From: Actinomycetota bacterium
GTDB taxonomy: Bacteria; Actinomycetota; Thermoleophilia; RBG-16-64-13
Direction of reading: 5' to 3'
DNA length: 64,000 bases
Assembly: GCA_012729575.1 (NCBI GenBank)
Contig: JAAYCW010000201.1
Location: forward strand, 981-64,980
Both the position numbers and the translations under genes were made by a program. The notes under the pieces were generated by a model. It did not search any database. It was given only the letters and a program-made list of their open reading frames with translations, and had not been told where the DNA came from. Shown here piece by piece: positions 8,195-59,297 of this stretch. Positions within the stretch are counted from its first letter, which is position 1, and each line of letters starts with the position of its first letter.

Positions 8195-8240
8195 GAGTCC
8201 TCCGGAGTCCCTATGACGTTGGCGGGACTCCGTAGGACTC
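8195..8240. terminator. 17-bp imperfect inverted repeat hairpin at the convergent sdhB / FAD-oxidase junction; no U-tract
   Basis: GAGTCCTCCGGAGTCCC ... GGGACTCCGTAGGACTC with one mismatch and a 12-nt loop. Located between two convergent gene ends. Confidence 0.3.
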
Positions 8241-26507: not shown

Positions 26508-26669
26508 TCTTTTGTCAAGGATGCAGAAGTACCGCCGATACAAATCGGAGCGGGTCCCTTCACCGTTGGCGGCCCAGGAGGCCCGGAATCGAAACAAGGC
26601 CGTGGAGTAAGATGGAGTTGGTGGTTGAGGCCTAGCCGCGAGGGTAAGGCGGCAAGGAGGAGTATCGCG

Positions 26670-40749: not shown

Positions 40750-41928
40750 ATGGAATCTTGGCACGGCCACTTACTGAAAGAACGAGTCGATCAGAGCAGT
40801 CTGCTGATCCAGGGCAATCGTGCCTGCGTGTTGGGCGCCCTTGACGCCGGAGTCCGGTTCTACGCGGGGTATCCGATAACTCCCAGTTCGGAGATCATGG
40901 AAGCCATGGCCGTCGAACTGCCGCGGATCGGGGGCGTTTTCGTACAGATGGAGGATGAGATCGCCTCCATATGTGCGTGCATCGGCGCCTCTCTCACCGG
41001 CGAGGTCGCGATGACCGCCACCTCCGGCCCGGGTTTCTCTCTGATGCAGGAGGCTCTCGGGTACGCGATCATGGTGCAGGCTCCGCTGGTTGTTGTTGAC
41101 GTTATGCGGTCGGGGCCTTCTACCGGCCGGCCCACCGCTCCCTCGCAGGCCGACGTGATGCAGGCGCGTTGGGGTACGCACGGCGATCATCCGGCCATCG
41201 TGCTTGCAGCATCGAATGTGGCGGATATGTACCGGCTCACAATGGCCGCGGTTCGTTTCGCCCTACGATTCCGGACGCCTGTAACGCTGTTGGCCGACCA
41301 GGTAGTCGGCCAGATGCGCGAGAGTTTTTCGGAGGAGCTTCTTGGTCGCTACCGTCTGACCAGCGGTGATTTCGATTTCACGCCTGGGTACCTTCATCCT
41401 GATCTGGCCCGAGAGGTACATCTGCCGCACGTTCTGGGTTCTGGAGAGTATCCGCACGTGACCGGGCTGTTTCACGACGAGACCGGGTTCCCAACGAATG
41501 ATCCGGAGAAGACCGACAAGTTCTTGCGTGAGCTTTACAACAAGGTAGCTCACCACCGAGACGAGCTCTGCCTCTACGATGTCAAGAACGAGGGCAGGGG
41601 TCGGGTGTGTATCGTGGCCTACGGTTCCTGCGCTCGGAGCGCTCGGGCGGCATGGAGGCTGGCCGATCAGGAAGGGTTGTCGGTCGAGGTTCTCCACCTG
41701 TACACGTTGTTCCCGTTGCCTGTGGAGATCGTTCAGAAGGTCGCTCGACGGGTGGAATTTATGATCATCCCCGAACTCAACCTGGGCCAGTACGCTCACG
41801 AGGTCCGCAAGATGGCCGAGCAGTGGACCACGGTCATCGGCATTGGCAAGACCGACGGCACTCTCATCACCCCACGCGAGATCCTCGATCGGATTGCCGA
41901 GCTGGTCGGTAAGTACGAAAGCGTGTAA
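40750..41928 (+). CDS. korA: 2-oxoacid:ferredoxin oxidoreductase alpha subunit
   Basis: OFOR alpha N-terminus LIQGNRACVLGALDAGVRFYAGYPITPSSEI. 392 aa. Confidence 0.85.
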   Translation: MESWHGHLLKERVDQSSLLIQGNRACVLGALDAGVRFYAGYPITPSSEIMEAMAVELPRIGGVFVQMEDEIASICACIGASLTGEVAMTATSGPGFSLMQEALGYAIMVQAPLVVVDVMRSGPSTGRPTAPSQADVMQARWGTHGDHPAIVLAASNVADMYRLTMAAVRFALRFRTPVTLLADQVVGQMRESFSEELLGRYRLTSGDFDFTPGYLHPDLAREVHLPHVLGSGEYPHVTGLFHDETGFPTNDPEKTDKFLRELYNKVAHHRDELCLYDVKNEGRGRVCIVAYGSCARSARAAWRLADQEGLSVEVLHLYTLFPLPVEIVQKVARRVEFMIIPELNLGQYAHEVRKMAEQWTTVIGIGKTDGTLITPREILDRIAELVGKYESV

Positions 41929-41931
41929 TCG

Positions 41932-42786
41932 ATGGCGCTTGAGATAGAACAGTTCCTTCGGACAGATCGGTTGCCCCATATCTGGTGTCCGGGATGCGGG
42001 TTGGGCATTATCACCGGCGCCTTTTTGCGGGCGATCCTGGATCTGGGTCTCACTCGGGAGAACACTGTGGTGGTGAGTGGGATCGGCTGCTCGAGCCGAG
42101 CGGCCGGTTATCTGAATCTGAACACGGTACACACCATCCACGGCCGGGCGCTTCCGGTTGCCACCGGCATCAAGATGGCCCGTCCTGACTTCACTGTGAT
42201 TGTGCTGACCGGTGACGGCGATGGCGCAGCCATCGGGGGTAACCATCTGATTCACTCCTGCCGGCGCAACATCGATCTCACCTGCATCCTCTTCAACAAC
42301 CAGATCTACGGCATGACCGGCGGCCAGTTCTCGCCGACCATGGATCCGGGGGGTAACGCGACGACCGCTCCCTATGGCCAACTGGAGCCTTCGTTCGACT
42401 TGTGCCGTTTGGCTGAAGCGGCGGGCGCCACTTTCGTGGCGCGAGGCACCGCGGCCGGCGTTCGCCAGATTGAGAAGATCATCAAGCAGGGCGTCCAACA
42501 TCCGGGATTCGCCTTCATCGAGGCCGTGGTTCCTTGTCCCACTGAATATGGGAGACGCAACAAACCGGCGAAAGCCGTGGACATGCTCGAAGAGGAACGG
42601 AAACGGTCGATATCTGTGAGTAAGGCGGCCAAGTTGTCGCCCGAGGAACTCGAGGGCAAGATCGTGACCGGAGTGCTCTTCCAGGATGTCGAGAGGCGTG
42701 AGTTCCAGAGCACTTACGCAGAGACCGTGGCTCGCGTGAAAGACGCCGAACTGGCGCGACGGTTGGCGGAAGGGGCCGGAGAATGA
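41932..42786 (+). CDS. korB: 2-oxoacid:ferredoxin oxidoreductase beta subunit (TPP-binding)
   Basis: WCPGCG near the N-terminus. TPP motif GDGDGAAIGGNHLIH. Confidence 0.85.
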   Translation: MALEIEQFLRTDRLPHIWCPGCGLGIITGAFLRAILDLGLTRENTVVVSGIGCSSRAAGYLNLNTVHTIHGRALPVATGIKMARPDFTVIVLTGDGDGAAIGGNHLIHSCRRNIDLTCILFNNQIYGMTGGQFSPTMDPGGNATTAPYGQLEPSFDLCRLAEAAGATFVARGTAAGVRQIEKIIKQGVQHPGFAFIEAVVPCPTEYGRRNKPAKAVDMLEEERKRSISVSKAAKLSPEELEGKIVTGVLFQDVERREFQSTYAETVARVKDAELARRLAEGAGE

Positions 42787-43463
42787 GCATGGTGGACGGA
42801 ACAACACCATCTCCGATCGGGTCTGATCAAGCCCCCACAAGTACCCCTTCATCTGCTCAATGGGAAGGGTTGCTGTTCGGCCGGGAGTATGTGGAGGTTC
42901 GGTTCGGCGGCAGCGGTGGTCAGGGAGTGATACTCATGGGTGTGATCCTGGCGACGGCAGCCACGCTCGACCATCATCGCGTTGTGCAGACGGAATCGTA
43001 TGGACCTGAAGCCCGGGGAGGATATAGCCGCAGCGACGTGATCATCTCCAGTGAACCAGTGGACTACCCTGAACTGGAAAGGGCCCATCTCTTGGTGGCT
43101 CTCTCCCAGTTGGCAGCGTCGCAGTACATCGGCACTCTGCGCAATGACGGTATCTTCATATACGATTTAGAGAAAGTCGTTGAGCCCCCGGTCTTCAAGG
43201 GGATCACTTTCGCTATCCCCTTCACCGAGATGGCCCTAGAGGAGACCGGTAGGACGCAGACGACGAACATCCTGGCACTGGGAGCGGTGACGAGTATCAC
43301 CGGACTCGTATCTGTGGAGTCACTGCGGAAAGCGGTGACGGGCAGAGTACCGGCCGGCACTGAGGAGATCAACAACCGAGCGCTGATCCGGGGCCTGGGT
43401 ATCGACCCTGCGGAGTGGCAGAACGGCGGCGCCAGGGCCTACGGCTTGCCGGTAGATCGGTAG
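42783..43463 (+). CDS. 2-oxoacid:ferredoxin oxidoreductase gamma subunit
   Basis: POR/KOR gamma-family sequence (GSGGQGVILMGVILATAA). 4-bp overlap with korB. Confidence 0.75.
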   Translation: MSMVDGTTPSPIGSDQAPTSTPSSAQWEGLLFGREYVEVRFGGSGGQGVILMGVILATAATLDHHRVVQTESYGPEARGGYSRSDVIISSEPVDYPELERAHLLVALSQLAASQYIGTLRNDGIFIYDLEKVVEPPVFKGITFAIPFTEMALEETGRTQTTNILALGAVTSITGLVSVESLRKAVTGRVPAGTEEINNRALIRGLGIDPAEWQNGGARAYGLPVDR

Positions 43464-43472
43464 GGTATACGT

Positions 43473-45311
43473 ATGCTTGTAGCCGGCATCGATGTTGGGG
43501 CTAAGAACGTCCACGCAGTCCTGATCAAGGACGGGGATGTAGTTGCCAGAGCGGAGGTCGCCTCCGGTTTTGACCACGACGAGTCGGCGGAGCGAGGCTT
43601 GCGGGAGGCGGTCCGACTTGCCGGCGTCACGTGGGAAGACATCGATTCGGTGGCCGTCACCGGCGCTGGTCGCAAAGCGCTTGCCTATGCCGCAGAAAAG
43701 CCTACTGAGATAGCAGCTGATGCACGGGGAGCCTTCGCTCTCTTTCCAGAGGCTCGTACTGTCGTCGATGTGGGGGCTGATGAAGCGAGGGCCATCCGAT
43801 TGGAGCCCGGCGGCAAGGTGGTCGATTTTGCGGTCAACGAGAAATGTGCAGCGGGAGCGGGCGCTTTTGTGGAGGCCATGAGCCGGGCGACCGAGATGTC
43901 GCTGGAGGATTTTGCCGAGGCGTCCCTCCACTCCACCGAGACCATACCTATGAACGCCCAGTGTACGGTGTTCGCGGAGTCGGAGGTGGTGAGTCTCATC
44001 CATGCGAACACGCCCTCGACGAACATCGCGCGGGCTGTTCATGATGCCATGGCCAGCCGAGTGTCAGCCATGGTCCGGCGCATCGGCGTAGAAGATCCAG
44101 TAGTCCTAGGTGGTGGGACAGCTCTCAACGTGGGATTCGTCAACTCCCTGTCGGAGGCTCTTGGCGGAGTGCATATTCACGTACTGCCGGATCCGGGCTT
44201 CCTTGGGGCCCTTGGGGCTGGGCTCATCGCTTGGGAATCGGCACAAAATCCAGAGCGTTCTCAGCCCGACCGACCCCCGAGGCCACAAAGCTCACAACGC
44301 GGCACTGCTACCGCAAGAGACGGGGCGGTTCTCGCAGACGGACTCGTTGAAAGAGAAACGGCTGGAGAGAGAGACTTCTGGCGATGGAGCGAGAGGTCTT
44401 GGTTCGATGGCGATTTGGACCCGCAAGAAATATCGGTCTTGACCGTAGGAGTGGATGTGGGGTCGGTCAGCTCCCAGGCCGTCATCCTCGGGGATGGGAG
44501 ACTGCTTTCGTACTTCTCCACTCGTACCGGCTCGTCCAGCCCGGATAGCGCCGTGAAGGCGTTCCGGGGGGCGAGCGAACCCTTAGGGATCACTCTGGAC
44601 GATGTGAGCTATGCGGTTGGTACCGGATACGGGCGTGTCAACGTGCCTTTCGCGGATCGCACCCTCACGGAGATAGCGTGCCATGCCCGCGGAGCCAATT
44701 TCATGGCCGGTCCCAGTGTCCGTACCATACTTGACATGGGAGGGCAGGACTGCAAGGTGATCCGCTGTGATGAGCGGGGCAAGGTGCTCAACTTCATCAT
44801 GAACGACAAGTGTGCAGCGGGGACCGGCAGAGGTATGGAGGTCATCGCCGATGTTCTGGGAGTCCCTGTAGAGGATATTGGGCGCCGCTCTTTCGAGACA
44901 GACGAAGAACCACCCCCGGTCAGCAATGTGTGTGTAGTGTTCGCGAAATCAGAAGCTACTTCCCTGCTCAGGGCGGGGTGGAGCGTGAATCGTGTGCTCG
45001 CAGCTTATTGCGCCGCCATGGCGCAGCGCGTGGCCGGGCTTATAGAGCGTATGCAGGTGGAGCGAGAGTTCTTCATCACGGGTGGGATCGCCAAGAATAT
45101 CGGAGTGACCCGTCGTATAGAACGGTTGATCGGTGTGGAAGCCCTGAAGCTCCCAGAGGATTCGATGCTCGACCCGCAGATGGCGGGAGCCTTGGGTGCG
45201 GCGCTTTTCGCTCATTCGCTGTCTCGCAAAGCAGAGAGAGAAAGAAGTACCGGCGTAGCGGCGCCCCGTAAGGCGACGGCTGCTGACGCCAAGGTGACTC
45301 CAGCTGAGTAG
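43473..45311 (+). CDS. tandem-domain BadF/BadG/BcrA/BcrD(HgdC)-type ATPase (CoA-substrate-specific enzyme activase family)
   Basis: Two ASKHA/activase domains, each carrying the NEKCAAGAG / NDKCAAGTGRGMEV Cys motif. N-terminal GIDVGAKNVHAV and second-domain VGVDVGSVSSQAV phosphate-1 loops. Confidence 0.75.
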   Translation: MLVAGIDVGAKNVHAVLIKDGDVVARAEVASGFDHDESAERGLREAVRLAGVTWEDIDSVAVTGAGRKALAYAAEKPTEIAADARGAFALFPEARTVVDVGADEARAIRLEPGGKVVDFAVNEKCAAGAGAFVEAMSRATEMSLEDFAEASLHSTETIPMNAQCTVFAESEVVSLIHANTPSTNIARAVHDAMASRVSAMVRRIGVEDPVVLGGGTALNVGFVNSLSEALGGVHIHVLPDPGFLGALGAGLIAWESAQNPERSQPDRPPRPQSSQRGTATARDGAVLADGLVERETAGERDFWRWSERSWFDGDLDPQEISVLTVGVDVGSVSSQAVILGDGRLLSYFSTRTGSSSPDSAVKAFRGASEPLGITLDDVSYAVGTGYGRVNVPFADRTLTEIACHARGANFMAGPSVRTILDMGGQDCKVIRCDERGKVLNFIMNDKCAAGTGRGMEVIADVLGVPVEDIGRRSFETDEEPPPVSNVCVVFAKSEATSLLRAGWSVNRVLAAYCAAMAQRVAGLIERMQVEREFFITGGIAKNIGVTRRIERLIGVEALKLPEDSMLDPQMAGALGAALFAHSLSRKAERERSTGVAAPRKATAADAKVTPAE

Positions 45312-46181: not shown

Positions 46182-46263
46182 TGGACCAGGCAGAGTGACG
46201 AGGCGCTCCCCTTGTCGGAAACGACGAGGGGAGCGCCTCGGTCAGAACGGTCGTCAGTCGGCC

Positions 46264-47478
46264 CTATAGACTCCGGGCCACGTGAGTGGTCAGCTCACCC
46301 AGCCGGTAGGTGTAGCTACCCATCTCGTTGTCATACCAGCCGAAGACCTTCACGTGGGTGAGCGGCACGCGATGCTCTCCGCAGATTCCCGGGAGCTTCA
46401 GGTCGACGAAGCCGGTGCGGGTGTGGGTCTCGATCCCCTCGATTACAACGGCCGCGTCCTCACCAAGCATGTCGGCCGACACGTTCTGTTCGTCACTGTA
46501 CTTGACTAATCCGCGCGCCTCTCCCTCAGCCGCTTCTCTGTAGATGGCGTTGATGTCGTCACGATCGACCGAGACGGTTCCATCCGGCGATGCTTCGGTC
46601 TGGAAGGTCACATTGAGGATGATCAGGCTCACACTTGCTGTAGGTATGCGGACTGAATCGGCCATGAAGCCTATCTGCGCGATCTCAGGCATGACCTGCT
46701 CGAGAGCTTTGGCAGCGTTGGTCGAAGTGATGATGACGTTGTTCAGTCCCGACCGGGTCTTACGAAGATCGCTTGCTCCCGAGCCGGGGACGGCATCGAG
46801 GACGGGTTGGCTGTTTGTGACCGCATGGACCGTGCTCATGCCGGCAGTGAGCATGTTGCGGGTGAGGTCGCGGGCGAGGAGGGGCCGCATCATATGGGCG
46901 AGGGCTGTAGTGGTACAGGAGGCGGCAGATACGAGTTTGTGCTTCCCCGGGTCGAAATCGAGGTGGTTGATCCCATGGATCAGGATGGCCGCGTCTTCCG
47001 GCGTCGGCACCCCTTTGACTTTGCTCTTGAAGGGAGCACTCAACAAGACGGCCCGCGCACCGGCTGCCAAGTGGCCTCGGACCGAGCCTTTGGCGGAATC
47101 GACCTCTGCATGTGGGTCGAGGAACTTGCCGGTGCAGTCCACCACCAGATTGACACCATGATCGCGCCAGGGGATATCTTTCGGATTCCTGACTTCCCTG
47201 AGGAAGACGATCTCCCTGCCGTGGGCGCGGAGCACGCCGGTTGACTCGTCGATCACCTTGACGTCGGGCCGGCCTCTGTGTCCGTCTAGATAGCGGTGCA
47301 GCGGCCCGTAGGTGCTGTCTTTGGCAACGTACTCTGCTATGGATTCAAGTGATGTTCCCACCTGACGGCCGACGTTGACCACAAACCGATCGAACCCCTC
47401 GTGGCCAAGGTGGTACCAGAGGGTCAATTTGCCGATCCGGCCTAGACCATTGATGCCCAACGTTCTTGGAGCGCTCAT
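46264..47478 (-). CDS. glyceraldehyde-3-phosphate dehydrogenase family protein, atypical long form (404 aa)
   Basis: NAD fold GINGLGRIGK. Catalytic Cys context ASCTTTALAH. STNAAKAL and C-terminal WYDNEMGSY match GAPDH. Contains insertions relative to the 335-aa canonical enzyme. Confidence 0.7.
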   Translation of the reverse strand: MSAPRTLGINGLGRIGKLTLWYHLGHEGFDRFVVNVGRQVGTSLESIAEYVAKDSTYGPLHRYLDGHRGRPDVKVIDESTGVLRAHGREIVFLREVRNPKDIPWRDHGVNLVVDCTGKFLDPHAEVDSAKGSVRGHLAAGARAVLLSAPFKSKVKGVPTPEDAAILIHGINHLDFDPGKHKLVSAASCTTTALAHMMRPLLARDLTRNMLTAGMSTVHAVTNSQPVLDAVPGSGASDLRKTRSGLNNVIITSTNAAKALEQVMPEIAQIGFMADSVRIPTASVSLIILNVTFQTEASPDGTVSVDRDDINAIYREAAEGEARGLVKYSDEQNVSADMLGEDAAVVIEGIETHTRTGFVDLKLPGICGEHRVPLTHVKVFGWYDNEMGSYTYRLGELTTHVARSL

Positions 47479-47539
47479 CCGTATCCCTTTCTCTTAGGTC
47501 GGGTGGTTATGAACACTTACATCGCTCTACTTACACCGC

Positions 47540-50500
47540 TCATGGCGACGACGAGGTACGCTTCCGCATGGGTACGCAGCCAAGGAAAATGTTGCCCGTA
47601 CGGCCGTCTACCGACAGCCAGTCCCCCGCTCTTATCTCAGTGCCGGCCAAACGAGCTATTCCCGGTTGTTCCAGCACCTCCAAGGCGCGGCAATCAACAA
47701 CGGCCGTCTTACCGAGACGTTTAGCGGTGACGGCGGCGTGTGACGTGGATCCACCTCGGGCGGTGAGCAGCCCGGAGACCCTAGTGATCATAGCAATGTC
47801 CTCGGGGACTGTGTCGGGCCGTAGGAGTACGATCCTGTCCTCTGGTGCCTCCTCAATGAGGCGGTCGATTTGCTCCATATTGATGGCCACCCGGCCGCAG
47901 AAGGCCCCGCCGGCTACCCCCATCCCCACTGCGACAGGGGGTCCGTACCTGGGCGATGACACGTCGAAGAAGGGGGCGTCCGCTTGTGGCTCGTGCACCA
48001 TGGCGCGCTTCTGGAGGATGTAGAGATCGTCTCCCGAAGCCGACTCAAAGGTGAACTCTATCTCCTGAGGGTCATGCTCTCGCTTCGCCACGAGGTCACG
48101 GGCTACTTCGAGTAGTCGTCCGTAGACCTGCGGGTAGTCTTTTTCCAGTGAGTGCTCTATTCCCTGGTACGTTGGGCTACCAAGCCGCTGGGCCTCCGAG
48201 ACGGGCCACGGGAACACCAAACCCCCGACTAGGTCCTCTCCCTGGCTGCGGACGGTGAAGTCTCCGAAAAGGCGGACCTGGCTGCTGTAGGGCTCTAGTG
48301 GGTTGCGGGTGAATGTCACCCCGGACCCTGACTCGCGGCTGAGGTTTCCGAACACCATCTGTTGGACAACCACGGCCGTGCCCCATTCTGGGGCTACGCC
48401 CAAGTATCGACGGTACAGCCTGGCTTCAGGCGAATCCCATGAATCGAGGACCTTCTGTACGCAGCCCACGACTTGGCGGAAGGGATCGTCCATGAACCTC
48501 ACCCCCATGTCCTTTGCCCGGGCCTTGTACGCGAAAGCCAGTTCTCGCATATGCTCAGGCGTGAAGTCGAGTTTGCGCTCAATCCCGTACCGAATCTTGA
48601 ACTCGTTCATCATGGCGTCAAAGATGTCGCGGTCGATGCCCGCGGACATGGCCCAAGACTGTAGGAATCGCCGGTACGAGTCCCAGGCCGCCCAGTCGAA
48701 GCCCTGTTTACGAGAGAGAGCCTCCGCCAGCTTGTCGTTCAACCCCACGTCGACGAAGGTCGACATGAGCCCCGGCATGGAGATCGCTGCGCCGGAACGG
48801 ATGGAGAGAGTGAGCAAACGCGCAGGGTCGCCAAGCCGGAGTCCCGTCTCCTTCTCCAGCCGGGAGATGGCCGCTCGGATTCTCTCAAGAGTGTCATCGA
48901 ATAGAGGCCGGTACTTCATCGCGGGTCGGGCGCTGAATAGCTCGGTCGCGAGGATGAAACCGCGCGGAACCTGGTGGCCGTAAGAGGCCATCTGCTTGAG
49001 TCCGAGGCCCTTAAAACCCAGCGTCATCTGGTCGTCGACACTAGGTCTGGGTTCGTGGATGGGTGAGATGAGACGCTCCGGGTCGTAGTTCATCATGCGG
49101 GTGAGAGCGTGATTGCTCAGGCGCCCGGTGAGCGTGGAGATCTGCCGAAGAGCCGCCGATACATAGCGGTCGAGAGCCTGCATACCCAGTGCCGATACCA
49201 GCACCTCGCGCAGTACCATCTCGGATACGGCATCCAGTGACATGCCGCGTATCTCGCACTGTCGGGGATCGTGCTCGAGCACGGTATGTAGCACTTGGTC
49301 ATGGCTCAAGATCGAAGTGCGGGAAAGCTCGGTCACCGATCCGACTATGAACTGGAACACATTCCTGTATTGATGGAATGTGAAGTTGTAACTGCTCAGG
49401 CCGGATTCGAGTAGACGGAGGTTCGCCGCCAAGCTCCGGGAGTCGACGCCGTCGGCGGCCAGAGCGCGAACGAACCGGTGGATCTTGGCCGCCATGCGCC
49501 GCAGCGTGTCCCGGGTGACGTAGGAGTAGGTACTGTCCGCGACCAGGTCCTCGAGGAGACGCGCTACCAGTCTTTCCACCCGGAAGGATAGTCCGAGCGC
49601 GTCGAACTTCGGTTCCGTGTAGGTGCCGTACATCGACGGGATCCCGGCTGCGATGTGGCGTTTCTGGTATATGTTCTCGACTGCCGAGGAGGGCGCGGGG
49701 TCCAGGATGATCGTCTGCAGGTTTTCGAGGACCTTGAGGGCGGCATCGAGCAGACGCTCTCGCGTGGACTCCCGGGGCCTCTTCTGCCATGCAGTGAGAG
49801 CCTTGGTGAAGGCGCTACGGGTCGCCGAGTCAAGTCGCAGATGCTGCTTTACTGCCGCTCCGACGTCAGCCGCCGACAGAGAGTACTTCTGCGCGAGCAG
49901 TTGGTGCGTGCGGACCATGAGGCTGACCCGCCTGGGCCCCTGGGAATCCGAGTCCTTGCCCGGCGGAAGTTGGGCAAGTAGTTCTTCAAGGGTCGCGACC
50001 TGCATTCTGATGAGACGATCGAGGAACGCCTCTACGTCTGGGGATGGTGTCTCCACGGCGGCGGTCTGGGGAGTCCGGCCCTCCATCCTGGCCAGTAGAC
50101 TCATCAGGACCTCGTGCGGCTCCTCGGCCCATTTCTGTTCTCTCTTCACAGCAGCCAGCGTGTTCGCCGACAAGTACGAGGCGAGCCCGGAAGGGTCGAG
50201 AGTGGCCCAGTAGGTGAGGACGGCGCGGGAAAACGCGACAAGCCGGTTGGACGACTCTGCGTGAGATTGCTTGCGGAGGAAGTGCATGAGGGTATCTTGC
50301 CGGCCGCAGATCTCGTCCAGCTCGGTCGAGACGGCCCGGAGTTCACCCTCGGCACCGACATCGTTGAAGTAGACCGGGAAGGCCCGCAGAAGTTGCTTCG
50401 CGACAAAGTAAATGGGTCGAATGTCGGCGTTGAGGAAGCGGGTCACATCCCGTTGAAAGAGGTCGGTGTCGGCGATGTAGACGCCTCCCAGGCGCAACTG

Positions 50501-51739
50501 TACGTTGAGCGCAGCCGCAAGCCTCTCGTAAAGGGCAGGGTTGGCCTCGATGATGTGCATCCAACACCTGATCTTAGGCAGGTGAAACGGGTTGACGACG
50601 GTCTCCCAGTCGTCGGTAGCGCCTTGGATGTCAGGGTACTGGAAGCGCCAGGAGAGGACGTCCTCTATCAAGTGGTCGGCTGCGGCCACGTTACCGGCTT
50701 CGCCGATGGCCACGCCGATGGCCTCATAACACAGGAAGCGCATGAGCAGGAATTGATTGTCCCGCGCTCGGAAGAACCGGGTCAGGCGGCTGAGGATCCG
50801 GTCGACATCCATGTGCCTCTCCGGCTTCATGAGCTGGCGCACGACGGCAAGCAGGTCGACCATCACTTCGTTCTGGCGATAGCCAAGAGTGTCATCCTTG
50901 AGGAAATACAGACAGACTGCGAAGCGGTCCTCGAGATTGTCGATTCGGAACACTTGGTTGATCGCTCCATCGAGGATCTCTGAGAAAGTGGGGAGCTCGG
51001 GGGACAGAAGCTCATCCGCTGCAACTGCCTCAGCTCTCTTTACTAGATCGGCCACCCTCTTGGGCGCCAGATCGGTGAAGCTGGAGGCTACAGCGTCACG
51101 GTCGGTGAGCTCGGCCTCTCCAGAAAGAGCCCACTCAGGTATGGGTAGGCGCTCGGCGACCCTTCGGTAGCCGAGGAGAAGAAGTGAACGGTAGAGCTCC
51201 GAGTAGGCGGTCGAGAGGACCGGACGCCGACCGGCGGCTTCGACAAGGCCCCGCAGCAGTGTGTCTCGCTCCAGAGCCGCAAGTGGTTGGAGCGGTACGA
51301 ATCGGGCTAGGCAGTCTGCGATATTCAGCAGAGGCTCATCGTATTCTTCCGAATGAGGACCGGTCAGGGCGGCCGTACACCAAGCGAGAAGTTGTCTCAG
51401 CAAGAGAGAAGCCTGTTGGGAGCTGAGGGGTGTGTCCAGCAGGTCCAGCATCAGTTCTGAGAGCAGAGTGAAGGCCTCGCGCCGATTCTCCGAGCGCTCG
51501 AAGTAGGTCCAATTCCTCAGCAGGATCGTCTGAAAACCATCGATCAGCAGATCCGCGTTGCGATAGCTGTGGAAGTATTCGGCCAAAGTCTCAGCCAGGG
51601 GCACGCGCACACCGTGGTATCCCTCCACCGCCTTCAGCAGGGGCTTGTAGCGATCAGGGATCACGGCCGGCTGAGCGGTCCCGGGGAGATTGGCCCTGAG
51701 AGCGTCTGAGTCGACCAGCGTTTCGATCGGGTCCATCAT
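47540..51739 (-). CDS. 1399-aa multidomain protein: ~860-aa N-terminal region of unknown function, then a PPDK/PEP-synthase-type ATP-grasp nucleotide-binding domain, then a PEP-utilising-enzyme phosphohistidine swivel domain; no PEP/pyruvate TIM barrel
   Basis: PPDK_N-like segment starts at about residue 880 (GFKGLGLKQMASYGHQVPRGFILATELF ... RSGAAISMPGLMSTFVDVGLND). Mobile His domain (LLTARGGSTSHAAVTAKRLGKTAVV) at the C-terminus. The N-terminal 860 aa are Leu/Ala-rich helical with no recognisable motif. Confidence 0.7.
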   Translation of the reverse strand: MMDPIETLVDSDALRANLPGTAQPAVIPDRYKPLLKAVEGYHGVRVPLAETLAEYFHSYRNADLLIDGFQTILLRNWTYFERSENRREAFTLLSELMLDLLDTPLSSQQASLLLRQLLAWCTAALTGPHSEEYDEPLLNIADCLARFVPLQPLAALERDTLLRGLVEAAGRRPVLSTAYSELYRSLLLLGYRRVAERLPIPEWALSGEAELTDRDAVASSFTDLAPKRVADLVKRAEAVAADELLSPELPTFSEILDGAINQVFRIDNLEDRFAVCLYFLKDDTLGYRQNEVMVDLLAVVRQLMKPERHMDVDRILSRLTRFFRARDNQFLLMRFLCYEAIGVAIGEAGNVAAADHLIEDVLSWRFQYPDIQGATDDWETVVNPFHLPKIRCWMHIIEANPALYERLAAALNVQLRLGGVYIADTDLFQRDVTRFLNADIRPIYFVAKQLLRAFPVYFNDVGAEGELRAVSTELDEICGRQDTLMHFLRKQSHAESSNRLVAFSRAVLTYWATLDPSGLASYLSANTLAAVKREQKWAEEPHEVLMSLLARMEGRTPQTAAVETPSPDVEAFLDRLIRMQVATLEELLAQLPPGKDSDSQGPRRVSLMVRTHQLLAQKYSLSAADVGAAVKQHLRLDSATRSAFTKALTAWQKRPRESTRERLLDAALKVLENLQTIILDPAPSSAVENIYQKRHIAAGIPSMYGTYTEPKFDALGLSFRVERLVARLLEDLVADSTYSYVTRDTLRRMAAKIHRFVRALAADGVDSRSLAANLRLLESGLSSYNFTFHQYRNVFQFIVGSVTELSRTSILSHDQVLHTVLEHDPRQCEIRGMSLDAVSEMVLREVLVSALGMQALDRYVSAALRQISTLTGRLSNHALTRMMNYDPERLISPIHEPRPSVDDQMTLGFKGLGLKQMASYGHQVPRGFILATELFSARPAMKYRPLFDDTLERIRAAISRLEKETGLRLGDPARLLTLSIRSGAAISMPGLMSTFVDVGLNDKLAEALSRKQGFDWAAWDSYRRFLQSWAMSAGIDRDIFDAMMNEFKIRYGIERKLDFTPEHMRELAFAYKARAKDMGVRFMDDPFRQVVGCVQKVLDSWDSPEARLYRRYLGVAPEWGTAVVVQQMVFGNLSRESGSGVTFTRNPLEPYSSQVRLFGDFTVRSQGEDLVGGLVFPWPVSEAQRLGSPTYQGIEHSLEKDYPQVYGRLLEVARDLVAKREHDPQEIEFTFESASGDDLYILQKRAMVHEPQADAPFFDVSSPRYGPPVAVGMGVAGGAFCGRVAINMEQIDRLIEEAPEDRIVLLRPDTVPEDIAMITRVSGLLTARGGSTSHAAVTAKRLGKTAVVDCRALEVLEQPGIARLAGTEIRAGDWLSVDGRTGNIFLGCVPMRKRTSSSP

Positions 51740-53064
51740 TCTTCCTGCCGTTCGAGTGCGGACTCTGTGTCCTGCTCCTCCTCCAACTCGCTGCTGCCCT
51801 CTGCCTCCTCATCAAGACGGGTGAGGAGCACCCGGCAGATGCGCATACCGTCGACCTCGAGCACCTTAGCGTGGAAGTTGCCCACCTGAGCCTCGTCCCC
51901 CACTTGGGGACGGCGCTGCAACTGTTCAAAAACCCGGCCTCCCAGAGTTGGGAAGCCCTCCTCGGGGATCTGCAGACCCAGAGTTTCCTCCAAGTACTCG
52001 ATACGGGCGGCGCCGTCCACCGAATAACTGCCGTTGTCGTTGCTCTCCACCTCGGGCGCTTCCAAGTCGAATTCGTCTTGAACCTCACCGATGAGTTCCT
52101 CCACGACATCTTGGATGGTCACGATCCCGGCGGTACCGCCGTGCTCGTCCACGACGATTATGAGTGGGGTACGGGTACTCTGGAAGCGCTGGAGAGCCAC
52201 CTCGATGTTGGATGTCTCCGCGATGAAGCCGATGGGGCGCAGCAGGCGGCGCAGAGCGGCGTCGCGGGGAGCCCGGTATAGGTCTTTGACGTGCACGTAC
52301 CCGACGATGTTGTCCACATCCTCTTCGTATACGGGATAGCGTGTATGGTTGGTCTCTGCGATGTCGTCAATAGCTTGGGCGACCGTGAGCGATGTGGGCA
52401 GGGCAGCCATCTCGGTCCGGGGCACCATGATCTCGGTGACCGTTTGGTCACCGAATGTCAAAGCGCGGCGCATGAGCGTCTGCTCCACCTCGTCAATGTG
52501 TCCCACTTCCTGGCTGGCTTCTATGATCATCCGCAGCTCCTCCTCGGAATGGGCGAGCTCGCGTTCTGAGGCGGGCTTGATATGGAAGATCCTGAGAATG
52601 CCCGCCGCCGATGCGTACATGAGCCAGGTGATGGGCTTCGTGATCAGGTAGACCCAGCGTAGGGGCATGGCGACGAACAGTGCAGACCCCTCCGCCTTAC
52701 GGATCGCCACGGACTTGGGCACCAGCTCTCCGAAGATGATGGTAAGGAAGGTTACGAGAACGAAGGCGATCGCGGCCGCGGCCACAGGGTTCATGACGAT
52801 GCCGAAGACATCTGAAAACGCCTCGGCTCCCAGCCAGCCCAATCCCATACTGGCGACTGTGACCCCCAGCTGGGTCGCCGAGAGATACGCGTCGAGGTGG
52901 TTGACGATGTGGTTGGCTACCCGTGCCCGTTTGTTGCCGGTCGCTGAGAGTTCGGCCATCCGTGTGTCGCGGACTTTGACGATGGCGAACTCAGCCAGAA
53001 CGAAGAATGCGTTGACCATCACCAGCAGAAAGACGCCGATGATTTTGACGGCAGTCGGGTTCAT
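51736..53064 (-). CDS. CNNM/CorC-HlyC family transporter (DUF21 TM domain, CBS pair, CorC_HlyC)
   Basis: Four N-terminal TM helices (DUF21). Tandem CBS domains. C-terminal transporter-associated domain. ATGA overlap with the downstream 1399-aa gene. Confidence 0.85.
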   Translation of the reverse strand: MNPTAVKIIGVFLLVMVNAFFVLAEFAIVKVRDTRMAELSATGNKRARVANHIVNHLDAYLSATQLGVTVASMGLGWLGAEAFSDVFGIVMNPVAAAAIAFVLVTFLTIIFGELVPKSVAIRKAEGSALFVAMPLRWVYLITKPITWLMYASAAGILRIFHIKPASERELAHSEEELRMIIEASQEVGHIDEVEQTLMRRALTFGDQTVTEIMVPRTEMAALPTSLTVAQAIDDIAETNHTRYPVYEEDVDNIVGYVHVKDLYRAPRDAALRRLLRPIGFIAETSNIEVALQRFQSTRTPLIIVVDEHGGTAGIVTIQDVVEELIGEVQDEFDLEAPEVESNDNGSYSVDGAARIEYLEETLGLQIPEEGFPTLGGRVFEQLQRRPQVGDEAQVGNFHAKVLEVDGMRICRVLLTRLDEEAEGSSELEEEQDTESALERQEE

Positions 53065-53285: not shown

Positions 53286-54248
53286 TCAGCGTTTACGCGC
53301 AGAGTCCTCCAGCACGGGCTCAAGCAGCCCCCACGCTTCCTCAGCCGTCTCCACGAACGAGAAGATCTCCAGATCGCCCGGACTGATCACGCCTTCTTCG
53401 ACCAGGGCGGAGAAGTTGATGATCCGCTCCCAGTAGTCCCGACTGAAGAGGAGAACCGGGATGGGCTTGATCTTGCGAGTCTGGATGAGCGTGAGACCCT
53501 CGAATAACTCGTCGAGAGTCCCGAATCCCCCGGGGAAGACCACCAGGGCGATTGCGCGCATCATGAAGTGCATCTTGCGGAGAGCGAAGTAGTGGAAGTT
53601 GAAACACAGATAGGGGGTGATGTAAGGGTTAGGTCTCTGTTCAAAAGGCAGGACGATATTGAGGCCGACCGTCTCGGCTCCCACGTCGTCCGCGCCTCTG
53701 TTGGCGGCTTCCATAATGCCGGGGCCACCTCCGGTGACCACAACCGCTCGGTATGGGCCGTGTGCGGAACTCCGGGAACCAGCCTTGGCGGATGGTTGGA
53801 GTGATCCCGATATCATCTGCCCTAGTCGCCGGGCCTCCTCGTAATAGCTGCTCTTGGCGACGAGAGCTCGTGCGGTCCGCGCTCGGTCAGCAGCCGCCGG
53901 GTCGGCCGGGTTCTGAGCCGCCGCCTGTTCCGCCTCGGCCAAGAAAGCGGTGGCGTCCTCGGGAGCGGGGATGCGGGCACTGCCGAACATGACCACGGTA
54001 GCCCCGATGCCGCGGTCTCTCTGCAGGATCTCAGGTTTCAGATACTCCAGCTGCAGACGGGAGGCGCGAAGCTCGTCTCGCAACAAGAAATCAGGATCGG
54101 CGAATCCAAGTTTATAGGCGGCTGAACTGGTCTGCGGCGTCTCCGGATCGAGATCCGAATGCCGTCTGTCCTCCTCGGCGGAGGGGAAAGTCCTCGCGGG
54201 CTGTACCTTCTTTGAAGCTCGCTTTCGACCACGAAGTTGTTCTGCCAT
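53286..54248 (-). CDS. LOG-family (TIGR00730) nucleotide 5'-monophosphate nucleosidase, long form
   Basis: LOG motifs GGGPGIMEAANRGA and PGGFGTLDELFE. N-terminal extension of about 100 aa. Confidence 0.8.
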   Translation of the reverse strand: MAEQLRGRKRASKKVQPARTFPSAEEDRRHSDLDPETPQTSSAAYKLGFADPDFLLRDELRASRLQLEYLKPEILQRDRGIGATVVMFGSARIPAPEDATAFLAEAEQAAAQNPADPAAADRARTARALVAKSSYYEEARRLGQMISGSLQPSAKAGSRSSAHGPYRAVVVTGGGPGIMEAANRGADDVGAETVGLNIVLPFEQRPNPYITPYLCFNFHYFALRKMHFMMRAIALVVFPGGFGTLDELFEGLTLIQTRKIKPIPVLLFSRDYWERIINFSALVEEGVISPGDLEIFSFVETAEEAWGLLEPVLEDSARKR

Positions 54249-54273: not shown

Positions 54274-55620
54274 CTATTCCTTGCGGAGATCGATCACGTG
54301 CTGGGTCTTCCCTTCGCTTCTCTCGATAGCCCCGGGCTCCTTGAAGACTACGCCCACATTGATGCCTATGATGTCCTTCACGTTCTTCTGGATGCTTTGC
54401 TTGAGCCCGACCAAGGTCTCGTGCTCGGTGAAGGTGGTGACGTCGTCTGTTGACAGGATGCCCTCGGACACCTCCTTGTAGAGGCCGGGGGAAATCTCCA
54501 CTTGGATCTCTAGATTGTCCAAAGCCCCTTTGCGGCTGACGACCAGACGATAGTGCGGTTCCACGCGGGGGGACATGAGCAGCACCGACTCCACTTGGCT
54601 GGGGAAGACGTTGACCCCCCGGATGATGAGCATGTCGTCCGTGCGCCCGGCGATGCGATCCATGCGCGTATTTGTCCGACCACAGACGCAGGGCTCCGAA
54701 TTCAGCCTTGTGATATCGCCGGTGCGGTAGCGGATGAGCGGAAACGCTTCTTTGGTAAGCGTGGTGATGACCAGTTCGCCCCATTCGCCCTCTGGAAGGA
54801 CCTCGGCCGTGTCGGGATCGATTATTTCCGGCAGGAAATGATCTTCGTTTAGATGTAAGCCGTCCTGGGCTTCGACGCACTCGCACGATACCCCCGGACC
54901 GATGATCTCGGAGAGACCGTAGATGTCGCATGCTTTGATGTTCCACTTGCGTTCGATGTCTCTGCGCATGGCTTCAGACCAGGGTTCTGCACCGAAGACG
55001 CCCACCCTGAGAGGGAACCTGGTGACGTCCAGTTTGAGTTGCTGAGCGACATCCCACACATAGAGGGCGAAACTCGGTGTGCAGCAGAGAACGGTGGTGC
55101 CGAAGTCCTGCATGAGCATCAACTGGCGCTGCGTGTTGCTCCCCGAGATGGGGATCACTGAAGCGCCTATGAGCTCGGCGGCATAGTGCGCGCCCAGCCC
55201 TCCCGTGAACAGACCATAACCGTACGCGACTTGGACTATGTCGTCCTCGGTGGTTCCCGCGCAGGCGAGCGCCCGCGCACAGGCGTTCGCCCACATGGCT
55301 ACGTCGTTGCGCGTGTAGCCGACAGTGGTCGGCTTGCCCGTGGTGCCTGAGGAGGCGTGGATCCGGACGACTTCCTTCATCGGAGTGGCGAAGAGCCCGA
55401 ACGGATACTGGTCGCGCAGGTTGTACTTCCGGGTCATGGGCAGACGCGCGAGGTCTTCGACTCCTCGGATCTGCTCAGGCCCGATGGCGACCTTGTCAAA
55501 GAGGTCACGGTAGAATGGAACTCGATCGTAGACTCGTTTGACCAGGGCCTTCAGGCGCTCTGACTGGAGTTGCCTGAGATCCTCCCGGTTCATACACTCG
55601 TGCTCGCGATCGAAGATCAT
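54274..55620 (-). CDS. paaK: phenylacetate--CoA ligase family protein (PaaK-like adenylate-forming enzyme)
   Basis: N-terminus [23 protein letters not shown] is typical of PaaK. AMP-binding core SSGTTGKPT. 448 aa. Confidence 0.85.
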
Positions 55621-55783
55621 CTCTGTTTCCCCTTCTACGGCTTGTAGGACGCCCTCAGGCGCGTGTCTTTCGGCGGTGTCGTCGTGCGATGGTATAGGCA
55701 GTAGGGGAAACCGTCAACCGCCGGGCTGGAGGCTGGACGCAACTCGCAACCTGGGGGCGATAGTGGCCACCCCTCGATTCTGA

Positions 55784-56473
55784 TCAGACCTTGAACGCCG
55801 AGGGGCAGAGGTCCTGGAGAACGCAGTTGTCGCACTGCGCGCGCTTGGCGGTGCACACCGCGCGGCCGTGTTCTATCAGTAGATACGTGAGCCGGAACCA
55901 GTCGGCCCGGGGGATTATCTCCAGCAATTCCCGTTCGATCCTGTCAGAGTTGGCAGACGCGACCAGCCCCAGCCTTTGGCTAAGCCTATTCACATGCGTG
56001 TCGACGGCGATGCCCGCTTCCGGATCTGTGGCATAGGCCTCCGGGTGTGCATTGCCGAGCACGATATTGGCGGTCTTTCTGGCCACTCCAGGCAGAGTCA
56101 GAAGCTCAGCCATACTCGCAGGAATCTCACCCCCGTAATCCAGAAGTACCTTCTGAGCCGCGGCGATTATGTGCTTCGTCTTGTTTCTGAAGAAACCCGT
56201 CGGCCTGATATCCTGCTCGAACTCGGCCGGGTCTGCCGACGCGTAATCCTCGATCGTTCGGTACTTCTGAAACAACGTGGCAGTAACCTGGTTGACCATT
56301 TTGTCGGTACATTGAGCCGAAAGGATCACCGAGACCAGCAACTCCCAGTCGGTGGTGAACTCGAGTACTATCCCGGCGTCGGGGTAGGCGTCGCGGAGAC
56401 GCGAGACCACTTCGTTCGCACGAGCGGCTTTGTCTCTAGCTCCCGTCCGTATCATCCTCTTCCCCATGCCCAT
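55784..56473 (-). CDS. nth: endonuclease III (DNA glycosylase/AP lyase)
   Basis: HhH-GPD (LPGVARKTANIVL) and C-terminal 4Fe-4S cluster CTAKRAQCDNCVLQDLC. The longest ORF extends to 56548. Confidence 0.85.
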   Translation of the reverse strand: MGMGKRMIRTGARDKAARANEVVSRLRDAYPDAGIVLEFTTDWELLVSVILSAQCTDKMVNQVTATLFQKYRTIEDYASADPAEFEQDIRPTGFFRNKTKHIIAAAQKVLLDYGGEIPASMAELLTLPGVARKTANIVLGNAHPEAYATDPEAGIAVDTHVNRLSQRLGLVASANSDRIERELLEIIPRADWFRLTYLLIEHGRAVCTAKRAQCDNCVLQDLCPSAFKV

Positions 56474-56673
56474 CACCTCTGGCTCGGTTTGGCTGTGCCG
56501 TCGTTCACACACTTCTCCTGGCGGAATCATACGGCATGGTCGGTGCATAAGGCAGTCTGTTGCCCGGGGTGCAGTCCTTGTTTACAATGGTGCCGGTCTA
56601 AGGGGCGACGAGCGCTCAGACCGAGCCGCGCAGTGCGACCGGGCGTGACGGCGTATGTCTGCGCCTGGAAGGA

Positions 56674-58482: not shown

Positions 58483-58513
58483 GTCCCCTCGATCCACCAA
58501 GAAAGGATGCCGC

Positions 58514-58993
58514 ATGCCTTACGTGATGATAGACAACAAGAAATGCACCGGTTGCCGCATGTGCGAGTTGGCCTGCTCGGCCTGGCATGAGGGAGCGTAC
58601 CGGCCGTCTGTTGCGCGCCTTCACGTTGACGTCGAGCCCACGAGTGCCCATGTTCGGGGTCATACCTGTCTTCAGACGGCCTGCGCTAAGTGTGAGGAGG
58701 CCTGTCCTGTGGAGGCCATAGAGCGCCACCCCATCACTGTTAGGGCGGTGGGCCTGGAGCCCGTTGAGGGCTACGTCTTGAAAGTGAACGAGGATCTCTG
58801 CACCGGGTGTGGCGTCTGCTACGACGTCTGCCCGCAAGGTGTCATCCATGAGCATCCCGAGCGCAAGGTGGCCTTCAAGTGCGACCTGTGCGATGGCGAG
58901 CCCCAGTGTGTTGCTTTCTGCCAGAACCCTCACGTCTTGGCGATCGACGTGCGGCAGAGCAAGGCGGAGAAGGCGGCCGCCGCGCCCGCATAG
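58514..58993 (+). CDS. 4Fe-4S ferredoxin-domain protein (probable AOR electron partner)
   Basis: CTGCRMCELAC, CAKCEEACP, CTGCGVCYDVCP and CDLCDGEPQCVAFC cluster motifs. ATG at 58514 with a GAAAGGA Shine-Dalgarno. Confidence 0.8.
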   Translation: MPYVMIDNKKCTGCRMCELACSAWHEGAYRPSVARLHVDVEPTSAHVRGHTCLQTACAKCEEACPVEAIERHPITVRAVGLEPVEGYVLKVNEDLCTGCGVCYDVCPQGVIHEHPERKVAFKCDLCDGEPQCVAFCQNPHVLAIDVRQSKAEKAAAAPA

Positions 58994-59027
58994 GGCCCCG
59001 GCTTCCTGTGGCCGAATAGTGACGTCC

Positions 59028-59297
59028 ATGGCGAGGGTCTTCCTGAAATTGCCCGTTGGCCTGGTTGGACCACAGGGGTCTGCCCGAGCGGAATGCCAAG
59101 GCCGCACCGTGCTTGAGGCTCTGCATGATTGCGTCTCCTCCAGACCGGCGTTGAGATCGCGCATCTTCCGCGACGACGGGAGCGTGTGGGTGGGCGTCTT
59201 TCTCAACGGCCGCAACGTACGGCAGCGGGAAGGACTGGAGACTCTTCTCGTCGACGGTGATGAGATACGGATTCTGCCCCCAATAGCCGGCGGATAG
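59028..59297 (+). CDS. moaD: MoaD/ThiS-family sulfur carrier (C-terminal GG)
   Basis: 89-aa beta-grasp-like sequence ending ILPPIAGG, directly downstream of the AOR/ferredoxin genes. Confidence 0.65.
   Translation: MARVFLKLPVGLVGPQGSARAECQGRTVLEALHDCVSSRPALRSRIFRDDGSVWVGVFLNGRNVRQREGLETLLVDGDEIRILPPIAGG

Follow-up and report, generated by a model that had tools for sequence, protein, structure and literature searches.

Organization of the locus

The stretch of DNA analysed here (the window; 64,000 nucleotides, to which all positions refer unless a locus is named) comes from contig JAAYCW010000201.1 of a Thermoleophilia member of the Actinomycetota. It contains two adjacent genes that are the subject of this report: one encodes a long-form paralogue of glyceraldehyde-3-phosphate dehydrogenase (GAPDH), which we label GAPL, and the other a phosphotransferase derived from pyruvate, orthophosphate dikinase (PPDK), which we label DIK. 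The GAPL gene (46264..47478) has an ATG start and codes for 404 amino acids; an earlier note on this DNA, made from the sequence alone, had given the same bounds, which are unchanged, and the strand is minus. Translation of the plus strand over the same interval is riddled with stops. The codons of the catalytic residues Cys188 and His218 lie at 46915-46917 and 46825-46827 (minus strand), respectively. The G+C content at third codon positions (GC3) is 0.74, similar to that of the genes around, and the protein is publicly annotated as GAPDH.

The DIK gene (47540..51739, minus strand; 1399 amino acids) is the conserved genomic partner of GAPL and lies immediately upstream. The two are co-directional and separated by exactly the 61 bp that the note had reported (47479..47539, minus strand). 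About 7 nt ahead of the GAPL ATG this spacer contains AAGGGA, which resembles a Shine-Dalgarno sequence, and no terminator-like hairpin was seen within it. Downstream of GAPL, 24 nt past its stop codon and between the convergent GAPL and YfcE-phosphoesterase genes, is a 14-bp G+C-rich stem-loop (46199..46240, minus strand) with a folding energy of −44.1 kcal/mol (z = −4.9) and no U tract. It probably marks the end of the GAPL operon or transcript, and its probable role is that of an actinobacterial-type bidirectional terminator. A promoter and terminator scan gave no signal above chance close to the GAPL and DIK genes, and an Rfam scan of the window found no RNA family.

Sequence features of GAPL

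GAPL has the two-domain architecture of GAPDHs, with Pfam matches to Gp_dh_N (57.6 bits) and Gp_dh_C (84.4 bits), each above cut-off. All of the hallmarks named in the earlier note are present as motifs: GINGLGRIG (residues 8-16), SAASCTTT (184-191, with Cys188), STVHAVT (215-221, with His218) and WYDNE (381-385). An alignment was assembled from 37 family members from many phyla and three canonical GAPDHs from the same loci; S187, C188, T189, H218, T221, R239 (in DLRKTR), T253, R277 (in VRIPT) and Y-D-N-E are invariant in all 40 sequences. Equivalents of the canonical catalytic residues Cys149 and His176, and of the phosphate-site residues S148, T150, T179, R195, T208 and R231, are thus all found in GAPL.

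GAPL is about 70 residues longer than the canonical GAPDHs of 332-335 amino acids from related loci and, as the note had proposed, the extra length arises from internal insertions, eight of which are evident in the alignment. Insertion 1 (+4) follows strand beta-B, and insertions 2, 3 and 4 occupy residues 58-72 (+14), 121-132 (+8) and 151-162 (+9). Insertion 5 (+4; 229-235) is in the S-loop, and insertions 6 and 7 are at 268-270 (+1) and 295-304 (+8). Insertion 8 (358-375) is a variable hairpin before WYDNE, which adds 17 residues in the window protein and up to about 30 in its relatives.

The end of beta-B also departs from the canonical pattern. The canonical N-D32, in which Asp32 binds the NAD ribose, is replaced by N35-x-G37-R38, within a segment (V33-V-N-V-G-R-Q-V-G41) devoid of acidic residues; across the clade N-x-G-R is nearly invariant, and Arg38 is invariant. 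As a general rule for Rossmann folds, the choice between NAD and NADP is read from the residues at the end of beta-B. Because an acidic residue is lacking there and an invariant arginine is adjacent, use of NADP(H) by GAPL is plausible, and the S-loop insertion also fits this assignment.

Relationships of GAPL within the GAPDH family

The best NCBIfam model for GAPL is TIGR01534 (type I GAPDH), at 298.4 bits against a cut-off of 367.2; canonical GAPDH paralogues from related loci score 404-455 bits with the same model. Matches to other specialized models fall further below their cut-offs, including those for ArsJ-associated GAPDH (NF033735; 157.4 bits, cut-off 450), erythrose-4-phosphate dehydrogenase, Epd (TIGR01532 and NF010058; 132 and 122 bits, cut-offs 530 and 539), and a 480-residue GAPDH (120 bits, cut-off 431). 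The closest solved structure is the glycosomal GAPDH of T. cruzi (E = 1e-38, roughly 30% identity).

An exhaustive search with GAPL of 1.84 billion representative proteins shows a gap in scores. Full-length long-form clusters (375-451 residues, 37-53% identity) score 215-423 bits, and canonical GAPDHs of 335-350 residues start only at about 137 bits. Likewise, a long branch in a neighbour-joining tree (distance-based and without support values) splits a long-form clade that includes the window protein from the canonical enzymes. With the canonical GAPDH of a related Thermoleophilia metagenome-assembled genome (MAG) GAPL shares 33% identity, and with the canonical GAPDHs encoded in the same loci as long-form ones 33-35%, whereas the canonical GAPDHs of that MAG and of a deltaproteobacterium are 62% identical to each other. 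Residues adjacent to the pocket are also changed, with Ala at the position of N146, Ser, Thr or Asn at that of D181, and, in the window lineage, Asn at that of G209. The description of GAPL as a divergent paralogue in the earlier note is therefore borne out, and we conclude that it is a member of a deep long-form clade of phosphorylating GAPDHs, catalytically intact as judged by its residues, and very probably not the housekeeping copy.

Domain anatomy of DIK

The C-terminal part of DIK has the two elements expected of a PPDK: an ATP-grasp nucleotide domain (PPDK_N, 72 bits; residues ~904-1250, 47990..49030, minus strand), with RSGAAISMPGLM at residues 981-992, and a phospho-histidine swivel domain (PEP-utilizers, 63 bits; residues 1301-1382, 47594..47839, minus strand). 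The catalytic His1334 is in GGSTSHAAV (codon at 47738-47740, minus strand). When a profile of the family was compared with structures in the PDB, residues 907-1396 aligned to PPDK residues 16-514 with a score of 303 bits, and in 52 DIK sequences the PPDK nucleotide-site motifs and TSH1332-1334 are conserved across phyla. The chain ends 17 residues past the swivel domain, from which we conclude that the phosphoenolpyruvate (PEP)/pyruvate TIM barrel is absent; no Pfam match to the barrel (PEP-utilizers_C) was found. By its motifs, then, DIK is fit for ATP-dependent phosphorylation of a histidine, yet it is without the usual acceptor domain. It falls short of both of the curated models that it resembles, with 335.6 bits against the PPDK model TIGR01828 (cut-off 843) and, for its C-terminal half, 258.8 bits against the Rv1127c-type model NF004531 (cut-off 456). 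Public labels for DIK proteins are 'pyruvate, orthophosphate dikinase', 'PEP/pyruvate-binding domain-containing protein' and 'hypothetical protein'.

The N-terminal domain (residues 1-900; 49040..51739, minus strand) is all alpha-helical and repeat-like. It has no match in Pfam and no sequence match in the PDB, and fold searches with its structure model returned only generic helical-repeat proteins; the model is least reliable within the conserved blocks. The domain is fast-evolving except for two charge-rich blocks that are conserved among the 52 sequences. The first (residues 376-500; 50240-50614, minus strand) holds H386, R391, DTD424-426, K448, GAEG462-465, R468, DE475-476, RKQ489-491 and H493. 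The second (residues 688-724; 49568-49678, minus strand) includes KRHIAAGIPSMYGTY and holds E688, Y691, KRH693-695, GIPSMYG699-705, E709, K711 and R720. With their many invariant Arg, Lys, His, Asp and Glu residues, these blocks would be well suited to binding an anionic ligand.

Conservation of the DIK-GAPL pair

In a synteny scan over one genome per GTDB species, the long-form GAPDH had at least 581 relatives, of which the 80 best loci were taken; two more from an exact protein look-up give a set of 82, which are numbered with the prefix L below. DIK lies within 10 kb of GAPL in 73 of these, representing about 15 phyla, so the functional tie to the upstream phosphotransferase-like gene suggested in the earlier note gains considerable support. 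The arrangement is tandem, DIK before GAPL, in 46 loci (median spacer about 89 bp), convergent in 19 and divergent in eight. No DIK was found in the other nine; contig ends account for five of these, and the remaining four are genuine absences. The sources include Thermoleophilia, Gaiellales, Acidimicrobiia, Fermentibacter and Acidobacteriota; Syntrophorhabdus, Smithella, Syntrophobacterales, Geobacter, Bacteroidales, Lentimicrobium, Cloacimonadota and several Clostridia; and Calditrichales, Sumerlaeota, Spirochaetales, Chloroflexia, Methylomirabilota, Gemmatimonadetes, Myxococcales and Magnetococcales. A cultured Petroclostridium has the pair in its complete genome (CP124862.1), where a DIK gene of 1362 codons is followed after 30 bp by a GAPL gene of 417 codons, and a long-form GAPDH is encoded on a 3.84-Mb contig of a Fusibacter. 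The Petroclostridium pair (L096; 1808267-1829520) adjoins a hydrogenase-maturation cluster (hypF, hypC, hypD, hypE and hycI) and an insertion sequence element (DDE_Tnp_1).

The pairwise distances within GAPL follow those within DIK (r = 0.84, Mantel p = 0.001), a correlation to which shared species history contributes. The Fermentibacter pair is nearest to the Gaiellales-type pair, whereas identity is just 56-57% for other pairs from Thermoleophilia (L024 and L053), which indicates joint horizontal transfer of the two genes.

Clustering of the open reading frames (ORFs) in the 82 loci gave no family other than GAPL and DIK in more than eight loci, and thus no third conserved partner. In a Pfam census of the 115 nearest and 97 second-nearest neighbours, canonical GAPDH (five) and triose-phosphate isomerase (TIM; two) were the most frequent, and the remainder looks random; no transporter family recurs among these 212 genes. 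Genes for CNNM, LOG, PaaK, Nth and YfcE recur in the closest relatives only. We conclude that DIK and GAPL form a conserved two-gene module that has not been described previously: a full-text literature search found no description of the pair or of a 3-phosphoglycerate dikinase, and the only relevant find was a paper on the truncated PPDK VadK (PMC13400623), which is discussed below.

Four candidate fusions were rejected. P0317 (682 residues; proteins from the representative search carry the prefix P), which joins PPDK_N to the N-terminus of GAPL and could have been a Rosetta-stone fusion, is an artefact of a frameshift, its junction being rich in Arg and Pro, and P0259, P0298 and P0389 are unrelated proteins in which a canonical GAPDH is joined to phosphoglycerate kinase (PGK), TIM or HEAT repeats.

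Canonical glycolytic genes beside the pair

Twelve of the loci have gap, pgk or tpi near the pair, and these are its sole recurrent neighbours. A canonical type I GAPDH is encoded within the same locus as GAPL in six Thermoleophilia and six deltaproteobacterial loci, mostly with pgk and/or tpi alongside. In the Thermoleophilia loci (L006, L007 and L010-L013) the long-form protein is 72-75% identical to that of the window; the genes are arranged as tpi < pgk < gap < DIK and a divergent GAPL, and the canonical gap product of L010 scores 450 bits with TIGR01534. Because these relatives have canonical gap-pgk-tpi in the same locus, the long-form protein is a paralogue there, and the coexistence of the two GAPDHs that the earlier note had surmised is seen directly. 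No canonical gap, pgk or tpi is present within the 64-kb window.

The deltaproteobacterial loci are L023, L031, L032, L034, L036 and L079; five of the canonical GAPDHs score 421-455 bits, and that of L034 was detected by tblastn only. Arrangements differ, with gap>pgk>GAPL> in L031 and <pgk<gap GAPL> <DIK<glpC<glpB in L079, a Syntrophaceae MAG. In the latter, glpB and glpC, which encode subunits of the anaerobic glycerol-3-phosphate dehydrogenase, precede DIK co-directionally (L079:15541-18017, minus strand), and the canonical gap-pgk genes are divergent from GAPL. For the family and the near relatives of the window protein, the long-form enzyme therefore neither clusters tightly with housekeeping GapA nor is the sole GAPDH.

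The wider long-form clade

Other members of the clade have varied genomic settings. P0243 (53% identity to the window protein) follows a DIK gene, P0248, P0267 and P0274 (37-48%) stand alone, and P0251 (41-44%) follows a lamin-tail-domain/PKD gene and not DIK. P0257 and P0262 (41-45%), which belong to a sister clade of long-form enzymes, follow a highly divergent PGK-family gene, whose 441-residue product matches Pfam PGK over its full length with 49-54 bits and gives no tblastn match with ordinary PGK. Genes of this type lie directly upstream of P0257/P0262-type GAPDHs at L086:587-1909, L087:90-1412 and L088:66-1391. That either a PGK-like kinase or DIK stands beside a long-form dehydrogenase argues that DIK occupies the slot of a partner handling 1,3-bisphosphoglycerate.

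The contigs L086, L087 and L088 are short, with about 40% G+C, and carry what amounts to a second unusual kinase/GAPDH pair. In two further long-form GAPDH-like proteins from the representative search, P0308 and P0321, the catalytic Cys and other active-site residues have been lost (for example, LGNQFS for SAASCTT), and these may be pseudo-enzymes.

Other genes in the window

A gene for a CNNM/CBS/CorC_HlyC transporter (51736..53064, minus strand) overlaps the start of DIK by 4 nt and is probably co-transcribed with it in the window. It is not part of the conserved module, its adjacency being limited to the window, L001 and L002. Upstream of it is a gene for a LOG-family (Lysine_decarbox) protein (53286-54248, minus strand) with an N-terminal extension of about 165 residues that has no match of any kind; outside the window, the order LOG-CNNM-DIK-GAPL is shared by the closest relatives alone (L001 and L002).

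On the other side of GAPL, at 40750-45311 (plus strand), are genes for a three-subunit 2-oxoacid:ferredoxin oxidoreductase (POR_N, TPP_enzyme_C and POR), followed by one for a 612-residue double BcrAD_BadFG ATPase-domain fusion that scores 544 bits with the BzdQ model; a similar POR and BcrAD_BadFG block, with separate ATPase genes, is present in L001 and L002. At 54274-59297 are clustered a PaaK-like phenylacetate-CoA ligase (579 bits, cut-off 646), an aldehyde:ferredoxin oxidoreductase and a ThiS/MoaD-like gene. This cluster and the oxidoreductase block suggest fermentation of aromatic amino acids. A gene at 8211-11312 (minus strand) encodes a 1033-residue fusion of FAD-linked oxidase domains, a 4Fe-4S dicluster domain and a CCG domain, a single-chain enzyme like YdiJ or glycolate oxidase. 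Three ORFs, 1006-1659 (plus), 12395-14239 (minus) and 26625-27614 (plus), of 217, 614 and 329 codons and GC3 0.66-0.75, have no Pfam match.

A proposed role for the pair

From these sequence comparisons DIK and GAPL probably work as a pair of enzymes, not described before, at the triose-phosphate step of sugar metabolism. The 1,3-bisphosphoglycerate that GAPDH makes or uses is normally handled by PGK, and DIK is locked to a GAPDH; the simplest role for DIK would thus be to make or use this same acyl-phosphate. We tentatively propose a two-protein module in which DIK makes or consumes the 1,3-bisphosphoglycerate handled by GAPL, a reading that we regard as quite possible, if short of probable.

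As to substrate, direction, cofactor and any physical complex or channelling, the following scheme is what we infer. ATP, with or without orthophosphate, would phosphorylate His1334 of DIK, releasing AMP and either pyrophosphate or orthophosphate. The swivel domain would then hand the phosphoryl group on to a carboxylate, with 3-phosphoglycerate as the likeliest acceptor, giving 1,3-bisphosphoglycerate. The acceptor site could be formed by the polar blocks of the helical domain, or by the active site of a docked GAPL, with the helical domain as the dock. Finally, GAPL would reduce 1,3-bisphosphoglycerate to glyceraldehyde-3-phosphate and orthophosphate, probably with NADPH. The net result would be a PGK-independent route of gluconeogenesis driven by conversion of ATP to AMP; in the reverse direction ATP would be formed from AMP and pyrophosphate. 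There is a precedent for transfer between an acyl-phosphate and histidine in bisphosphoglycerate mutase, and textbook hydrolysis energies put the proposed dikinase step near equilibrium, so that it could either drive gluconeogenesis, with hydrolysis of pyrophosphate pulling, or yield ATP from AMP and pyrophosphate.

A stronger form of this proposal, which we consider doubtful, is that DIK and GAPL make up a physical machine, a '3-phosphoglycerate, phosphate dikinase / NADP-GAPDH' that interconverts 3-phosphoglycerate and glyceraldehyde-3-phosphate with no need of PGK and passes on the labile 1,3-bisphosphoglycerate by channelling; the acceptor domain that DIK lacks may then be supplied by the GAPDH active site itself.

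Several observations weigh against a metabolic dikinase module. Since PGK and canonical GAPDH also occur, in many cases next to the pair, a bypass seems redundant unless its direction, energetics or cofactor differ. In four loci (L030, L057, L062 and L073) GAPL is not accompanied by DIK, the flanks covered being about 4-10 kb on each side. For GAPL, AlphaFold2 modelling from 28 close homologues gave a mean pLDDT (predicted local distance difference test score) of 46.7, and the model is unusable for the pocket and the insertions. The substrate of GAPL could be another phosphorylated aldehyde. And VadK, the sole truncated PPDK that has been characterised, acts as a regulatory kinase that phosphorylates itself, not as a metabolic dikinase (PMC13400623).

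The last point bears on the best of the alternatives, which we nonetheless think rather unlikely: that DIK is an autophosphorylating histidine kinase and scaffold that binds GAPL and tunes triose-phosphate flux, with no transfer of the phosphoryl group to a metabolite, its helical repeat perhaps binding canonical GAPDH or PGK too. VadK (Rv1127c) has the same barrel-less ATP-grasp and His core, autophosphorylates on His, and binds and regulates enzymes encoded by neighbouring genes (PMC13400623), and the helical-repeat fold modelled for the N-terminal domain of DIK is typical of protein-binding scaffolds. The match of the C-terminal half of DIK to NF004531 (259 bits) also points this way, but it is under the 456-bit cut-off and DIK scores better against true PPDK (336 bits). 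The invariant charged blocks look as much like a ligand site as a protein interface, and a regulator would have no obvious need for a dedicated, catalytically intact GAPDH paralogue to travel with it through about 15 phyla.

It is unlikely that the pair uses a different couple of anionic aldehyde and acyl-phosphate, such as erythrose-4-phosphate/4-phosphoerythronyl-phosphate or a phospho- or sulfo-sugar acid, in a pathway other than glycolysis, with the glycolytic adjacency being secondary. GAPDH paralogues with altered substrates do exist, Epd among them, and the identity of only about 33% to canonical enzymes, the eight insertions and the changes near the pocket at the N146, D181 and G209 equivalents would all be in keeping with such a role. 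Both anion-site arginines and T179/T208 are, however, kept in GAPL, the scores with the Epd models (122-132 bits) are far from the cut-offs (530-539), only gap, pgk and tpi recur near the pair, and genes of other pathways are not conserved there. The earlier note had hinted at a non-glycolytic role. The recurrence of those three genes and the retention of all of the phosphate-site residues point to triose-phosphate chemistry, and 'non-glycolytic' may be too strong.

That GAPL is simply the housekeeping GAPDH of its host, its adjacency to DIK being without functional meaning, would account for the public annotation and for the absence of canonical gap, pgk and tpi from the window. We consider this very improbable, in that relatives with 72-75% identity have the canonical operon directly beside DIK, the GAPL clade is apart from all canonical enzymes in the tree, the score is below the curated TIGR01534 cut-off, and the pairing with DIK outlasts rearrangement and transfer across phyla.

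Least credible of all is a transporter-coupled role like that of ArsJ, with CNNM exporting an unstable acyl-anion product of GAPL: CNNM, DIK and GAPL are indeed co-directional in the window, with CNNM and DIK overlapping, and in the same order in L001 and L002, but the other 79 loci lack CNNM, transporter families do not recur among the neighbouring genes, the score with the ArsJ-associated GAPDH model is 157 bits (cut-off 450), and CNNM/CorC proteins are annotated as Mg/Co or polyamine exporters. The transporter link and the ArsJ analogy drawn in the earlier note are accordingly set aside.

Implications

The step between glyceraldehyde-3-phosphate and 3-phosphoglycerate in bacteria is usually seen as the work of one reversible GAPDH/PGK pair serving both glycolysis and gluconeogenesis. 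If the proposal that DIK and GAPL form an acyl-phosphate module is true, many anaerobes run this step with other energetics or cofactors. The carriers include syntrophs, amino-acid fermenters, taxa of digesters and sediments, and the cultured Petroclostridium and Fusibacter, and metabolic reconstructions and estimates of ATP yield for these organisms would change. In the stronger form of the proposal, as a physical machine, the pair would constitute a third and hitherto overlooked energetic bypass of the Embden-Meyerhof pathway, after pyruvate kinase versus PPDK/PEP synthase and phosphofructokinase versus fructose-bisphosphatase, and one that is widespread in energy-limited anaerobes. Were DIK instead regulatory, the VadK principle, that PPDK-derived histidine kinases control adjacent enzymes, would extend from mycobacteria to central carbon metabolism across phyla. 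At present the annotation of both genes is wrong or incomplete, reading 'GAPDH', 'pyruvate, orthophosphate dikinase' or 'hypothetical protein'. The parent GAPDH and PPDK families are known; new are the GAPDH clade and the PPDK-derived architecture that together form the module.

Comparison with known systems

Like the ArsJ-associated GAPDH (NF033735), GAPL is a GAPDH paralogue recruited into a non-standard operon. Its locus differs in being without arsJ, a gene of the major facilitator superfamily; the neighbour is of the CNNM family, and that adjacency is lineage-specific.

DIK has the ATP-grasp and phospho-His swivel domains of PPDK and PEP synthase, with their nucleotide-site and TSH motifs. 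It lacks the PEP/pyruvate TIM barrel of these enzymes and has instead the 900-residue N-terminal helical domain. VadK (Rv1127c) of M. tuberculosis, described in 2026, is also a truncated PPDK; it phosphorylates itself on His422, and it binds methylcitrate-cycle enzymes whose genes adjoin its own and regulates their flux (PMC13400623). Both proteins have a barrel-less ATP-grasp and His core and are encoded beside metabolic enzymes. VadK is about 490 residues long, has no helical N-terminal domain and is partnered with methylcitrate-cycle enzymes, whereas DIK has 1399 residues, is found in anaerobes of many phyla and has a dedicated GAPDH paralogue. With its extra 900-residue domain, DIK does not fit the Rv1127c type, which consists of the ATP-grasp and His domains alone (~490-530 residues).

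GAPL shares with the canonical type I enzyme (GapA; TIGR01534) the two-domain fold family, the Cys/His pair, the residues of the Ps and Pi phosphate sites and WYDNE. It differs in its identity of about 33%, its deep separate clade and sub-cut-off score, its eight insertions, including the S-loop +4, and the absence of Asp32; it is also paired with a dikinase-like gene, while in its relatives the canonical gene fills the gap-pgk-tpi slot. In Bacillus subtilis, GapA is the glycolytic NAD enzyme and GapB the gluconeogenic NADP enzyme. The present case resembles this division of labour in that there are two GAPDH paralogues in one genome, the second without the NAD-specifying acidic residue, which by analogy suggests a separate direction or cofactor for GAPL. 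GapB, however, is a type I enzyme of ordinary length that still works with PGK, whereas GAPL belongs to the long-form clade and has a partner other than PGK.

In the PGK-GAPDH couple, as in DIK-GAPL, a kinase-type enzyme and a GAPDH are encoded together and share, or in the case of DIK-GAPL are proposed to share, an acyl-phosphate intermediate. DIK is unrelated to PGK and, if it acts on 3-phosphoglycerate, two phosphoanhydride bonds (ATP/AMP) would be spent or gained at this step, and not one.

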